A stretch of DNA of 64,000 nt, from assembly GCA_050185215.1 (NCBI GenBank), contig JBFWZP010000012.1:11439-75438 (forward strand), given 5' to 3'. Below are positions 1,243 through 40,465 of the stretch, in pieces (within the stretch, counting starts at the first letter, position 1; the number at the start of each line of letters is the position of its first letter). Origin of the DNA: Dehalococcoidia bacterium. Lineage in GTDB: Bacteria; Chloroflexota; Dehalococcoidia; Tepidiformales; Tepidiformaceae. The position numbers and the translations under genes were made by a program. The notes beneath the pieces are model-generated. The model saw nothing but the letters and a program-made list of their open reading frames with translations. It searched no databases and was not told where the DNA came from.

Positions 1243-1359
1243 TCTGGTGGCTAGAGCGAGGTGGTCCCACCCGTTCCCATCCCGAACACGGTTAGTGAAA
1301 CGCCTCAGCGCTGACGATACTGCCCGGGCAACTGGGTGGGAAAATAGGCCGCCGCCGGT
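1243..1359 (+). rRNA. rrf: 5S ribosomal RNA, not linked to a 23S gene
   Basis: The sequence contains the conserved 5S core CCCACCCGUUCCCAUCCCGAACACGG...GUGAAACG...AGCGC.GA.GAUACUG...GGGAAAAUAGG. Helix I pairs CUGGUGGC (1244-1251) with GCCGCCGG (1351-1358), including two G-U pairs. Length is about 117 nt. Confidence 0.9.
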
Positions 1360-1368
1360 CAATAGAAG

Positions 1369-1593: not shown

Positions 1594-3222
1594 TTGTCAG
1601 CAGATACCGCCCAGCCAGAAACCCCAGAAGCCGAAATGGACATGGGGGCGCTCCTCGAAATGGAGGACGCCCAGCCGGGGCAGCTTCGCCGCGGCGAAAT
1701 TGTCGAGGGGATGGTCATGGGCGCGTCTCCCGATGGCCTGATGTTGGATGTCGGCACCAAGACTGAAGCCGTCATCCCGCAGGGCGAGATGCTCTCCCTT
1801 GGCGTCGATGGCGCCGCCAAGCTCAAGGCAGGCGACACCGTCAAGGTCATGGTCCTTCAGCCTTCCTCGTCCGAAGGCCACGCGATCGTCTCGCTCGACC
1901 GCGCCCGCGGCGAAGAAGGGTGGGACACCCTGGCCGCCCGCCACGAATCCGGCGAAATCTTCGATGCCCAGGTCACCGGCCATAATCGTGGCGGGATCCT
2001 GGTCAACGTCGATGGTGTGAACGCCTTTGTGCCGCTCTCGCAGATCGATAGCGTCCGCCGCGATGATCCCGATGCCTCCAGCCAGTTGGCCAACCTCGTC
2101 GGCACATCCATTCGCCTGAAGGTCATCGAGCTCAACCGCAAGCGGAACCGAGTCATCCTGTCCGAGCGCGCGGCTATGGCCGAGATTCGCAAGGAACAGA
2201 AAGATCGCGTCCTCGACGAACTCCAGGAAGGCGAAATCTGTACTGGCAAGGTCTCGTCCATCACCGATTTCGGCGTCTTCGTCGATCTCGGGGGCGCCGA
2301 CGGCCTCGCCCACATGACGGAACTCACCTGGGAGCGCGGCAAGAAGGCCCGCGACCTCTACAACGTCGGTGACGAAGTCCAGGCGTACATTCTGAAGATC
2401 GACCGCGAGACCAAGAAGATCTCGCTTTCGCTCAAGCGTGCCCAGCCCGAGAAATGGGACAGCACCGTCGATCGCTTCGTCATCGGCCAGATCCTCATCG
2501 GCCGGGTGACCAAGCTCATGGCGTTTGGCGCGTTCGTCCGCCTCGACGGCCCGGTCGAAGGTCTGATTCACATTTCCGAGCTTTCGAACCGGCGCATTCA
2601 ACATCCGAAGGATGTCGTGAAAGAAGGCGATGTCGTCCCGGTGAAGCTGGTCCGCATTGAAAAGGACCGCCACCGCCTCGGCCTCAGCCTTCGCCAGGCG
2701 CGCAACGATGCCGAAGCCATGGGCTTCCAGTTCGATGCCAACGGCGCCGTCATCGACTATCCCGATGATGTCCGCGAGCAATTCCAGTTGCCTGCGCGCG
2801 ATGCTTCTATCCCGGTTCGCAAGCAACCGAAGACCGCTCAGGAGGCCATCGAGCAGGCCGTCTCGCGCGACCCCGAGCCGATCTCGGCCTTCGCGCACGC
2901 GTTCTCGCGAGCGCTGGAGAATGCCGAAGGCGGAGTCACCGTCACCGACGCGCCGGCCGAAGAGCCAGCCGTAGCGGAGGCTTCCGAAGTGGCTGCCCCA
3001 TCCGAACAGGCAGTAGCGGAGACTGCGGAAGTCGTCGAAGCTGAAGTGGCTACGCCGGCAACCGCTGCCGCTGAAGATGCGGGGGCTGCCGTAGCTGAAA
3101 CTCAGGATTCTTCCGAGGCGACAGCGGAACCCGCAGTTGCCGAAAATGAAGCCGTACCGGACGGCTCAGAAACAAAACAAGCAGCACCTTCATCCGAGGA
3201 GGAGTCTGCTGGCGGTTCGTAG
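1594..3222 (+). CDS. rpsA: 30S ribosomal protein S1 with four S1 domains and an acidic Ala/Glu-rich C-terminal tail
   Basis: Four repeats of the S1 OB-fold pattern are present (GEIVEGMV..., GEIFDAQV..., GEICTGKV..., GQILIGRV...). The TTG start at 1594 has GGAG 6 nt upstream. An ATG at 1636 is an alternative start. Confidence 0.9.
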   Translation: MSADTAQPETPEAEMDMGALLEMEDAQPGQLRRGEIVEGMVMGASPDGLMLDVGTKTEAVIPQGEMLSLGVDGAAKLKAGDTVKVMVLQPSSSEGHAIVSLDRARGEEGWDTLAARHESGEIFDAQVTGHNRGGILVNVDGVNAFVPLSQIDSVRRDDPDASSQLANLVGTSIRLKVIELNRKRNRVILSERAAMAEIRKEQKDRVLDELQEGEICTGKVSSITDFGVFVDLGGADGLAHMTELTWERGKKARDLYNVGDEVQAYILKIDRETKKISLSLKRAQPEKWDSTVDRFVIGQILIGRVTKLMAFGAFVRLDGPVEGLIHISELSNRRIQHPKDVVKEGDVVPVKLVRIEKDRHRLGLSLRQARNDAEAMGFQFDANGAVIDYPDDVREQFQLPARDASIPVRKQPKTAQEAIEQAVSRDPEPISAFAHAFSRALENAEGGVTVTDAPAEEPAVAEASEVAAPSEQAVAETAEVVEAEVATPATAAAEDAGAAVAETQDSSEATAEPAVAENEAVPDGSETKQAAPSSEEESAGGS

Positions 3223-3260
3223 TCGTTCCCTGGGCGTACCCAGTGGGTTTGGAGAAGCAC

Positions 3261-5741
3261 ATGGCCGATAGGTTCGATAAATTCACCGAACGAGCGAGGC
3301 GTGTGCTGACGCTCGCGCAAGAAGAGGCGCATCGCTTCAACCATAACTACATCGGCACCGAGCACATTCTCCTGGGCCTGGTGCGCGAAGGCGACGGCGT
3401 GGCCGCAAAAGTGCTCGCCAACCTTGGAGTCGAGCTCAACAAGGTCCGCTCCGCCGTCGAATTCATCATCGGCCGCGGCGACCGCACCGTTCTCGGCGAA
3501 ATCGGCCTGACCCCACGCGCCAAAAAGGTCATCGAACTCGCCGTCGACGAAGCCCGCCGGCTCTCCCACAGCTATATCGGCACCGAGCACCTGCTCCTCG
3601 GCCTCGTCCGCGAAGGCGAAGGTATCGCTGCCGGTGTGCTCGAGAGCCTGGGCGTAAACCTCGAACGAGTCCGCGCCGAAACCACCCGCATCCTCAGCCA
3701 GTCGGCCCCCCAGGCGGCCGGCGGAGCTACTGCCGGTGCCGGCGCTCGCCAGGCAACCCGCACCCCCACCGTCGATCAGCTCGGCGCCGACCTCACCCAG
3801 GCCGCGCGAAACAACCAGCTCGATCCGGTCATCGGCCGCTCGAACGAACTCGAGCGCGTCGTCCAGATTCTCTCCCGGCGAACTAAAAACAATCCGGTGC
3901 TCATCGGCGAGCCTGGCGTCGGTAAGACCGCCATCGCCGAACTTCTCGCGCAGCGCATCGTCAGCGGCGACGTGCCGGAGACTCTCCAGGGCAAGCGCCT
4001 CATCACGCTCGATATCGGCTCGCTCGTCGCGGGCACCAAGTATCGGGGCGAATTCGAGGAGCGCCTGAAGAAGGTTATCGAGGAGATCAAGGGCGCCGGC
4101 AACTGCATCCTCTTCATCGACGAGTTGCATATGCTCGTCGGTGCGGGCGCGGCCGAGGGCGCGGTTGACGCCGCGAACATCCTCAAGCCATCGCTCGCCC
4201 GGGGCGAACTCCAGTGCATCGGCGCCACCACGCTCGATGAATTCCGCAAGCACATTGAGCGCGACGCGGCCCTCGAACGGCGCTTCCAGCCGGTCATGGT
4301 CGAGCAGCCCTCGGTCGAGGAGACAATCGAGATCCTCAAGGGCATCCGCCCGCGCTATGAGGAGCACCACAAGTTAAAGATTAGCGATGCGGCCCTCGTC
4401 GGGGCCGCCGAGCTCTCTTCCCGCTACGTCAGTGACCGGTTCCTACCGGACAAGGCCATTGACCTCATCGACGAGGCATCGAGCCGCGTCCGAATCCGCC
4501 GCGCTGCCACCCCACCCTCGCTCAAAGAAGCGATGAAGGGCCTCGAGAGCCTGCGCCGCGAAAAGGACCAGGCGATCGCTTCGCAACAGTACGAATACGC
4601 CGCCGAACTCCGCGACCGCGAACTCAAGCTCCAGGACAAGATCAAGGAGATGGGCGAGTGGGAAGAGGGCGAAGAAGGCATCGCGACTCCTGTCGTTACG
4701 GAAGAGGACATCTCCGAGGTCGTCTCGATGTGGACCGGCATCCCGGTTGCTCGAATCGCCAGCGAAGAGAGTGCCCGCCTCCTCAAAATGGAAGAGCAGC
4801 TCCGCGGCCGGGTCATCGGCCAGGACGAAGCGATCGAGACCATCGCTCGCGCCGTCCGTCGCGCCCGCGCCGGCCTGAAGGACCCGCGCCGCCCGATCGG
4901 TGTGTTCTTGTTCTGCGGCCCTACCGGCGTCGGCAAGACGGAACTGGCCCGCGCTCTCGCCGAATTCATGTTCGACTCCCAGGACAACATGATTAAGCTC
5001 GACATGAGCGAATTCAGCGAGAAGCACACGGTTTCGCGCCTGGTCGGAGCGCCTCCCGGCTACGTCGGTTACGACGACGGTGGCCAGCTGACCGATACCG
5101 TGCGCCGCAAGTCCTACTGCCTCATCCTTCTCGACGAGATCGAAAAGGCACACCCGGAAGTCTTCAACCTGCTCCTGCAGATCTTCGATGAAGGCCGCCT
5201 GGCCGATGCGAAGGGCCGCAAGGTCGACTTCCGCAACACCATCATCATCATGACCTCGAACGTCGGGTCCGACCTCATCAAGAAGGATTCCGGCCTCGGC
5301 TTTGCGACCGCACAGGACGACATCAAGTCCGGTGAGGATCGCTACCAGCGCATGAAGGAGAAGGTGCTCACGGAACTGAAGAACGTCTTCAAGCCCGAGT
5401 TCCTGAACCGAATCGATAGCACGGTCGTCTTCCGCTCGCTCAGCCGCGAGGACATCCGCCGCATCGTTGATAACGAGCTTCGCAAGGTCGAAAAGCAGCT
5501 GATGCTCAAGGGCGTGACCATGGAAGTCACGGATGCCGGCAAGGACTGGCTCGGCGACAAGGGTTACGACCCGGTCTTCGGCGCCCGGCCGCTCCGCAGG
5601 GTCATCCAGGACAACATCGAAGATCGGCTCAGTGAGCTGCTCCTCTCCGGCGAATTCGGTTCGGGCGATTCCGTCCGCATCGATGCCGAAGAAGGCGAGC
5701 TCAAGATCGAGCCAGTTCGCGAGCCGGCTGCTGTCGGTTAG
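3261..5741 (+). CDS. clpC: ATP-dependent Clp protease ATP-binding subunit ClpC
   Basis: The N-terminus [16 protein letters not shown] carries two Clp_N repeats ([13 protein letters not shown] and [13 protein letters not shown]). There are two Walker A motifs ([16 protein letters not shown]) and a UVR-like linker [20 protein letters not shown] precedes the ATG at 3261. Confidence 0.93.
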
Positions 5742-5932: not shown

Positions 5933-9773
<3,841 letters not shown>

Positions 9774-39770: not shown

Positions 39771-39910
39771 GCTTCGATCGTATCGAAGCCGTCTACGTTT
39801 TCGCCGTGTCCGAACGGGCACAATCGCTGGCCGAAACGCTCCTCGTCTGGCCCTGTTCGCGTTCGCCAAGGGACTCCATGCTGTTCTCACCCAGGATTCG
39901 GGAGGAATCG

Positions 39911-40465
39911 ATGTCACGTATCCGGCCGCTTTCACAGGATGAGGCACATGAGGATGCCCGCGGGGCGTTCGATCAGGATATGCGCCGCTTCGGTCTCGTC
40001 CTGAACCCCACGGGCGTCCTTGCGTACCGTCCTCCGGTCCTGGCCGCTGCCCGCGCCCTGGGCGCCTCGGTTGGCAAAGGCGGCGTCCTCGAACCCGAAC
40101 TCCGGATACTCGTCTGCGTCCGCGTCGCCTCGCTGGTCGGATGCCCATTCTGAGTGGACATTAATGCTGCCGGCGGCAGCAAACTCGGCATATCCGACGA
40201 AAAGATCGCTGACCTCGCTAACTACGCCAGCAGCTCCCACTACTCTGAGCGCGAGCGCACCGCCCTCGAACTGGCCGACGCGATGTCGGCGGCAGCCGTC
40301 GAGGTATCGGACGAGCTCTTTTCACGCCTCCGAGGGCACTTCGATGAAGCTGAACTCGTGGAACTCTCAGCAACTGCTGCCATGGAGAACTTCCGCGCCC
40401 GCTTCAACCGCGTCTTCCAGATCGAGCCGAACGCGCTTTACTGCCCGATCGATGGCAGCAAGTAA
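39911..40465 (+). CDS. carboxymuconolactone decarboxylase (CMD)/AhpD-like protein with an in-frame TGA at 40151-40153: candidate selenoprotein (C-P-F-U), otherwise a nonsense pseudogene
   Basis: ORFs 39806..40153 and 40154..40465 are in the same frame and separated only by TGA. GGAGGA precedes the ATG at 39911. The joined product (about 184 aa) reads ...RILVCVRVASLVGCPF[TGA]VDINAAGGSKLGISDEKI...ERERTALELADAM..., with the TGA at the second Cys of the family's CxxC motif. Confidence 0.6.
40165..40181 (+). promoter_or_regulatory. candidate bacterial SECIS-like hairpin
   Basis: TGCTGCC-GGC-GGCAGCA forms a perfect 7-bp stem with a G-rich apical loop. It starts 11 nt after the in-frame TGA. Confidence 0.45.

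Follow-up and report, generated by a model that had tools for sequence, protein, structure and literature searches.

An AhpD-like gene of a Dehalococcoidia bacterium very probably encodes a selenoprotein through an in-frame UGA

A 64,000-nucleotide (nt) stretch of contig JBFWZP010000012.1 from a Dehalococcoidia bacterium, referred to here as the window, carries at 39911–40465 (+) a locus that gene prediction divides in two at an in-frame TGA. From comparison with related sequences we conclude, with high confidence, that the locus is one gene encoding a 184-residue AhpD-like/YciW-like selenoprotein of the carboxymuconolactone decarboxylase (CMD) superfamily, and that its UGA is read as selenocysteine (Sec) under the direction of a hairpin in the coding sequence (CDS), a putative Sec insertion sequence (SECIS). 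The gene is a new, mis-annotated member of the long-known CxxU type of AhpD-like selenoproteins.

One reading frame interrupted by a single TGA

The open reading frame (ORF) track cuts the locus into 39806..40153 and 40154..40465, which share one frame and are separated solely by the TGA at 40151–40153. An earlier note on this DNA, made from the letters alone, had described the two ORFs in these terms and had joined them, from an ATG at 39911 preceded by a ribosome-binding site (RBS), into a product of about 184 residues; the sequence and the ORF list bear this out, with GGGAGG seen ahead of the ATG and a translation of 184 codons. The joined translation reads ...VASLVGCPF*VDINAAGGS... (asterisk, TGA), with the motif C78-P-F-U81 and Asn at residue 85. 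The note had also placed the TGA at the second Cys of the CxxC motif, giving C-x-x-U, and had held that neither half is a complete domain. The first point is confirmed by the translation and by the alignment of homologues, and the second by the match to the Pfam CMD profile PF02627 (residues 41–123), which runs across the TGA. The full-length extent of the CDS agrees with tblastn matches in related genomes, which reach query residues 1–184. The features of the gene are as follows.

39900..39905 (+): RBS GGGAGG, read from the sequence, with a spacer of 5 nt to the ATG at 39911
39911..40465 (+): predicted full selenoprotein CDS, 184 codons including the Sec codon, followed by TAA
40031..40279 (+): CMD/AhpD-like core domain, residues 41–123, PF02627
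40142..40144 (+): codon TGC of Cys78, first residue of CxxU; Cys in 80 of 81 family sequences and invariant with respect to Cys-type homologues
40151..40153 (+): in-frame TGA, predicted Sec codon U81; TGA in 77 of 80 related loci, TGC in 3
40154..40164 (+): spacer of 11 nt between TGA and hairpin (codons V82-D83-I84 and two bases of N85)
40165..40181 (+): predicted bacterial SECIS (bSECIS) hairpin; 5' arm 40165–40171, loop GGC 40172–40174, 3' arm 40175–40181
40463..40465 (+): true stop TAA, from the sequence and the translation

The start codon lies exactly 80 codons 5' of the TGA in every orthologue checked. GGAG-type motifs (GGAGG, GGAG, AGGA) stand ahead of the conserved ATG in most of the orthologues shown, other upstream sequence being unconserved, and a scan for a promoter and a terminator around the gene found nothing. 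The gene order at the locus (family III CoA-transferase, CDGSH/ferredoxin protein, GNAT acetyltransferase, AhpD-like gene, GAPDH) is kept in three related loci, L001–L003, across the 12 kb compared (6 kb per side).

The TGA is conserved across phyla and pairs with cysteine in homologues

We collected 80 related loci by scanning one genome per species, with tblastn matches that cover query residues 1 to about 180. A stop codon occupies the identical column in 77 of the 80 and is always TGA, whereas three loci from Solirubrobacterales have TGC (Cys). The TGA carriers belong to at least eight phyla and include Chloroflexota (Dehalococcoidia, Thermomicrobiales, Tepidiformaceae), Burkholderiales, Binataceae, deltaproteobacterial metagenome-assembled genomes (MAGs), Thermodesulfobacteriota, Acidobacteriota, Myxococcota and Gemmatimonadota. 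In the window the composite motif TGA-N13-CTGCCGKNGGCAG is found a single time, against 0.00 occurrences expected; in the set of 84 loci used for the motif count (81 related loci and three E. coli references), 66 of the 81 related ones have it at the orthologous position, and one related locus (L017) has it additionally in a second paralogue.

In a search covering 5.8 billion proteins, the best 120 matches are all 101–119 residues long and cover just the C-terminal 55% of the query, and the 13 short matches that were retrieved all begin V/M-DINAAG, i.e. directly after the stop. This pattern is the footprint of gene callers restarting past a conserved stop. When 50%-identity cluster representatives were searched exhaustively with the C-terminal half, 1460 matches were obtained, the best 150 of which comprise about 100 short forms and about 47 full-length ones. 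Of the full-length sequences, 35 were retrieved, and nearly all have CxxC. At the column of the TGA, which the earlier note had proposed to inspect for Sec or Cys, the 14 full-length representatives that were aligned all have Cys (14/14, with C78 invariant), as do the Protein Data Bank (PDB) homologues (PA0269 and others) with the second Cys of their CxxC; together with the 77 TGA and 3 TGC loci, this column holds either the predicted Sec codon or Cys.

Additional CMD genes accompany the main copy in two loci. In L017, a second TGA-form paralogue (316–855; GCAY*ADRNAAGGS) lies beside it and carries the same SECIS motif, and in L015 two distant CMD genes stand in tandem next to it (7802–8770, minus strand), one with TGA (GCTY*GNQR) and one with Cys (QCEFCGNQR). 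The Burkholderiales copies L014, L015 and L017, which are 48–58% identical to the window protein, share a ...INAAGGSEAGAS... signature with a Chloroflexota subgroup (L013, L016). As judged from sequence likeness, this relationship between Burkholderiales and Chloroflexota suggests transfer of the gene between phyla together with its SECIS.

Several Cys-type relatives, namely L057 (= P0168), P0167, P0181, P0188, P0202 and P0216, are 330–360 residues long, and in these an N-terminal hydrophobic, apparently multi-pass membrane domain (~150–230 residues) is fused to the AhpD-like domain. This fusion was found in none of the Sec forms examined.

A conserved and covarying hairpin follows the TGA

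The sequence TGCTGCC-GGC-GGCAGCA (40165–40181), 11 nt 3' of the TGA, forms the perfect 7-bp hairpin to which the earlier note had drawn attention, and it is also the minimum-energy fold at that place, at −10.5 kcal/mol for the hairpin alone. We analyzed the hairpin in an alignment of 77 TGA-containing sequences, where the stem corresponds to columns 21–27 with 31–37 and where, since there are no indels, the spacer between TGA and hairpin has the same length throughout. Over the 77 sequences, 95.1% of the stem cells are paired, including 45 cells changed on both sides, and none of 500 shuffles matches this result. Stem pairing falls to 30–69% when the register is slid along the alignment, and RNAalifold independently gives the same stem. 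Of the 76 distinct sequences, 74 have U-A at pair 24–34 and two (L027, L035) have C-G, and pair 22–36 is either U-A (38) or G-C (28), with G-U or U-G intermediates.

The four-fold degenerate sites in the stem (columns 24, 27 and 33) are nearly frozen, with T in 75/77, C in 75/77 and C in 76/77, respectively, whereas the loop's own four-fold site (column 30) is free to vary, with C in 35 sequences, G in 22, T in 14 and A in 6. This contrast serves as an internal control and shows that selection acts on the RNA, not on the protein. The first loop base is G, and the second G or U, in 77/77 sequences. At the same place the three Cys-type loci fold at just −0.6 to −4.5 kcal/mol, as against a median of −10.0 kcal/mol in the TGA forms. 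The hairpin is conserved, covarying and confined to the TGA forms. Its properties are set beside those of a published bSECIS model (PMC13188914) below.

Apical loop: model 3–9 nt; hairpin 3 nt (or 5), within the range
Upper stem: model 4–16 bp; hairpin 7 bp (or 6), within the range
G in the first two loop positions: required by the model; hairpin GGC, present
UGA-to-loop distance: model 16–37 nt; hairpin 18 nt, within the range
Energy: model −7.5 kcal/mol or lower; hairpin −10.5 kcal/mol, below the cut-off, which 72 of the 77 relatives also pass

The best-known point of comparison is E. coli fdhF, whose minimal SECIS, according to the passage in PMC8659212 that cites Liu et al. 1998, is a 17-nt upper stem-loop 11 nt from the UGA, the same geometry that the earlier note had given. 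The window hairpin is alike in being a 17-nt stem-loop 11 nt after the UGA, with G and then G/U in the apical loop. Unlike the fdhF element it has no bulged U, a shorter loop (3–5 nt) and no conserved lower stem, and binding of SelB is predicted by analogy.

The stem also leaves a trace in the protein. At 40166–40180 of the window, residues 86 and 90 covary. Across the family, Ala86/Ser90 (GCU...AGC) alternates with Ser86/Arg90 (UCU...AGA), since base 1 of codon 86 and base 3 of codon 90 are partners in the stem. The locus is in this respect a clean example of a SECIS shaping the peptide encoded by its own coding sequence.

Both halves of the gene are under purifying selection

We compared the gene with nine orthologues, from which it differs by 0.5–0.75 synonymous differences per site. 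The ratio of nonsynonymous to synonymous rates (dN/dS) is 0.04–0.26 upstream of the TGA (80 codons) and 0.06–0.21 downstream of it (95 codons), so that purifying selection is strong on the two halves alike. The TGA has thus been kept through a long divergence at a fixed chromosomal position; neither a sequencing error nor a recent pseudogene can account for this. Two findings that the earlier note had named as fatal to its proposal did not turn up: the halves do not exist as independent genes but lie side by side in one frame in every locus, and there are no scattered stops in the syntenic orthologues L001–L003.

Three related copies retain the TGA and the hairpin and have a frameshifted C-terminal half (L040, 7562–8108; L046, 10001–10544; L062, 3588–4126), and the last of these also lacks the first Cys (GRPF*). 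The frameshifts are either MAG assembly indels or signs of decaying copies.

Placement within the CMD superfamily

For the profile searches, residue 81 was set to Cys. The Pfam CMD profile PF02627, the check that had been proposed for this locus, aligns with residues 41–123 over profile positions 1–83 of 84, and scores 44.9 bits (E 1.2e-11), well over the gathering score of 23, in a match that spans the TGA. The top NCBIfam model is NF053654, 'GroundWater_YciW, YciW-related (seleno)protein', which aligns end-to-end (1–176 of 179, E 8e-46); its equivalog cut-off of 310 bits is not reached by the AhpD-like protein, at 156.1 bits. Ten diverse relatives score 94–164 bits against the same model, all under the cut-off. 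The second NCBIfam match, TIGR01926 (peroxidase-related enzyme, YciW type), is aligned over 2–173 and likewise falls below its cut-off (41.4 bits against 81.8). Since the window protein scores far under the NF053654 cut-off and its relatives do too, the clade to which it belongs is a sister group that has no curated model of its own.

The best sequence matches in the PDB are the PA0269 structures 2ijc, 2o4d and 7xw1 (residues 41–166, E about 1e-11), followed by Atu0492 (2gmy) and then by the debrominase Bmp8 (6ohi, 6ohj). In each case the GC-x-x-C of the PDB match falls on the GCPF-U of the AhpD-like protein, whose CMD fold is shown at the level of sequence homology.

Active site and proposed function

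In the alignment with PA0269, C78 and U81 correspond to Cys48 and Cys51, at the start of the second core helix. With PA0269 and Atu0492, for which M. tuberculosis AhpD is the mechanistic reference, the protein shares the two-helix core, the placing of GC-x-x-C where the second helix begins, and a conserved Arg 10 residues before the second Cys. It differs from PA0269 in that the second Cys is replaced by the predicted Sec, E36 by Ile66, H55 by Asn85 and Tyr50 by Phe80, with an invariant Asp83 instead. The canonical proton relay of AhpD consists of a Glu 12 residues before the first Cys and a His 4 residues after the second. In the AhpD-like protein these are Ile66 and Asn85, the latter being the replacement of the usual His that had been noticed earlier, and the protein is therefore not a canonical AhpD. 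Across the family, the Glu site holds T, A, S or R, with no conserved Glu, and the His site N in 59, G in 14, H in 6 and S in 2 sequences. Residue 71 is R or K in 80/81 sequences (Arg71 here), and Asp83 is invariant (81/81).

Based on these comparisons, we propose that the UGA at 40151–40153 would be read as Sec through the standard bacterial route. The hairpin within the CDS would act as the SECIS, with a 6–7-bp stem and a G-G/U-N apical loop, beginning 11 nt past the UGA; by analogy with E. coli fdhF, SelB loaded with GTP and Sec-tRNA(Sec) would be bound by the hairpin and handed over on arrival of the ribosome at the UGA. The resulting C78-P-F-U81 center would occupy the CxxC position of the family, where the second helix of the conserved pair begins, and U81 and C78 would most likely cycle between a selenol/thiol form and a selenenylsulfide form. 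As far as sequence can tell, the protein is most likely a thiol/selenol oxidoreductase, acting either as a weak hydroperoxidase or as the reductant of a partner peroxiredoxin or disulfide. PA0269 has a weak hydroperoxidase activity that depends on its CxxC motif (PMC3141380). No AhpC gene or other conserved partner gene lies near the locus, and the protein differs from canonical AhpD also in this lack of a genomic link to AhpC.

Other chemistry of the CMD fold may also come into question, by analogy with Bmp8, which shows that this fold supports chemistry beyond AhpC recycling. Bmp8 is likewise a CMD-fold enzyme and matches the protein over residues 27–170 (E 8e-8); the match is distant, however, Bmp8 is a Cys enzyme, and no halogenation or bmp-type genes lie near the window gene.

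Evidence against the assignment and alternative explanations

Several observations weigh against reading the locus as a selenoprotein gene. Taken alone, the hairpin is close to what chance would give: the + strand of the window has 24 perfect hairpins of 7 bp where shuffled sequence has about 19, and the local fold z-score in this one sequence is just −1.5 for the hairpin region. The argument must therefore come from the comparison with relatives. In Rfam the hairpin has no matching family, the whole window yielding only a 5S ribosomal RNA (rRNA) at gathering thresholds, and a local Rfam search at permissive E-values returned chance-level matches alone, with no curated RNA family for this SECIS. 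ARAGORN searches of the 64-kb window and 60 related loci gave no tRNA-Sec, and tblastn with E. coli SelA, SelB and SelD found no selA, selB or selD in the window and 80 loci, so that the earlier statement that no sel genes are visible in the window stands. A conserved neighbor that would point to a partner or substrate was not found around the related loci, the best neighbor cluster being common to just 8 of them. Finally, the AhpD proton-relay Glu and His are both replaced, and the enzymology may consequently differ from that of AhpD. As regards the Sec machinery, the absence of sel genes from a 64-kb window says little about a multi-megabase genome. We infer that the organism is competent for Sec; for the class as a whole, Dehalococcoidia MAGs with 46–49 selenoproteins are recorded in BSepDB (PMC13326102).

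We considered whether the locus could be a pseudogene or the product of a sequencing or assembly error, such that a TGC or TGT Cys codon was mutated to or misread as TGA and the gene is dead or really encodes a Cys form. TGA and TGC are one base apart, and a few related MAG copies are indeed damaged (L040, L046 and L062 by frameshifts, L062 also by loss of the first Cys), but the TGA is found at one column in 77 independently assembled genomes, three TGA genomes are syntenic orthologues with nearly saturated synonymous sites, dN/dS is 0.04–0.26 in both halves, and the hairpin is co-conserved with the TGA and missing from the TGC forms. The comparative data effectively refute this explanation, which we regard as exceedingly improbable. 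Two small genes would offer another account, in which translation stops at the TGA and restarts at the adjoining GTG (TGAGTG coupling), and polypeptides of 80 and 103 residues form a split CMD protein. The codon right after the TGA in the window is GTG, and both the gene callers and the NCBI record give 80- and 103-residue genes back to back. Against this, 28 of 81 sequences have ATH (Ile) or CTN (Leu) directly after the TGA; these are not normal starts, and reinitiation there is therefore not a general explanation. There is, moreover, no conserved RBS ahead of that codon, the break falls inside a helix, between the two residues of the redox motif and exactly at the Cys of the homologues, and two genes leave it unexplained why the hairpin occurs only with the TGA. 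We give this arrangement very little credence.

The UGA might also be read through by a near-cognate tRNA-Trp or tRNA-Cys, with the hairpin just slowing the ribosome, if the organism lacks the Sec machinery. Hairpins 3' of stop codons can promote read-through in general, and no Sec machinery was found in the sequence examined (the window and the related loci). The G-[G/U]-N loop (77/77), together with its distance of 18 nt from the UGA, is, however, the signature of a SelB-type SECIS; the homologues have Cys at the column, a classical Sec/Cys pair; the nearest curated family, NF053654, is itself flagged '(seleno)protein'; and Dehalococcoidia with large selenoproteomes are documented. Read-through by an ordinary tRNA thus appears to us highly improbable, and insertion of Sec at U81 remains the reading that we favor. 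Global reassignment of TGA (codes 4 or 25) was also considered and is ruled out, since TGA is the terminator of 22 of the 49 long coding-like ORFs in the window.

Relation to known selenoproteins

AhpD-like selenoproteins were already known from metagenomic surveys, as the earlier note had stated. CxxU proteins of COG2128 were described from the Sargasso Sea in 2005 by Zhang, Fomenko and Gladyshev (27 sequences; PMC1088965), 'AhpD-like 1' was the fourth most abundant selenoprotein family in the 2008 Global Ocean Sampling (GOS) survey (299 sequences; PMC2398784), and such proteins also appear in genome surveys and reviews (PMC1794560, PMC13188914) and in BSepDB. The type has been known since 2005, and the gene described here is genuine but unsurprising. 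It agrees with the COG2128/TIGR01926-type CxxU family in encoding a small CMD-superfamily protein with Sec in CxxU, a bSECIS in the CDS after the UGA and widespread Cys homologues. It differs in scoring under the curated TIGR01926 threshold (41 bits against 81.8) and in the origin of its relatives: those found here are in MAGs of Chloroflexota, Acidobacteriota, Binataceae and Burkholderiales, some of them from groundwater, whereas the family was described from marine surveys. The similarity to NF053654 is closer, with the same length, an end-to-end alignment and a curated record of occurrence in selenoprotein form, but at 156 bits against an equivalog cut-off of 310 the protein is homologous to that family and lies outside the equivalog.

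A broader proposal can be put forward, although we hold it only tentatively and consider it somewhat less probable than an even chance. The window gene and its relatives would form a distinct YciW/AhpD-like clade that has no curated model and consists mostly of Sec forms, in which the AhpD relay is replaced by the invariant Asp83 and the conserved Arg71. The gene would travel with a near-invariant SECIS (CUGCC-GKN-GGCAG) across at least eight phyla, partly by apparent horizontal transfer, and its chemistry may differ from AhpC recycling.

Consequences for annotation

No curated model reaches the clade, and public records consequently split the gene in two. In NCBI GCA_050245895.1, the orthologue at L084 9758–10312 is deposited as adjacent genes of 80 and 103 residues, neither with a recorded Pfam hit. 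Several MAG proteins of 103–109 residues that are named 'carboxymuconolactone decarboxylase family protein' are the C-terminal half alone, and such fragments make up more than 100 protein clusters in large collections. With the UGA read as Sec, these split annotations become one full-length redox enzyme again. This reading also marks the Chloroflexota, Acidobacteriota, Binataceae and Burkholderiales genomes concerned as probable selenium users. The conserved motif TGA-N13-CTGCCGKNGGCAG can be used as a tag to find and correct these genes. The main value of the result lies in this repair of a routinely split annotation; selenoprotein biology as known is unchanged.

Other genes in the window and the related loci

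Two weak tblastn matches to Sel proteins were examined and neither is Sec machinery: the one in L030 is a CysN/CysC fusion, and the one in L075 is a SelA-like enzyme with an apparently Tat-type (twin-arginine translocation) signal. In L030, a deltaproteobacterial MAG, a CysD-like ORF and the CysN/CysC fusion, both named by inspection of the sequence, lie at 2812–5543, ~5 kb upstream. This sulfate-activation pair is not conserved in other loci, and it may hint at a link to sulfur; such a link is reportedly known for E. coli yciW.

Six further selenoprotein candidates in the window, with a TGA between coding-like segments, were checked and rejected, as they are same-frame neighbors (e.g. xseA/xseB and acetyltransferase/DegT) or shadow ORFs. 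Elsewhere in the window, a 5S rRNA gene (80 bits) lies at 1243–1360 (+). Protein-like ORFs (27–632 and 633–1238), not a 23S rRNA gene, stand ahead of it and rpsA comes after it, and it seems to lie apart from the rest of an rRNA operon.

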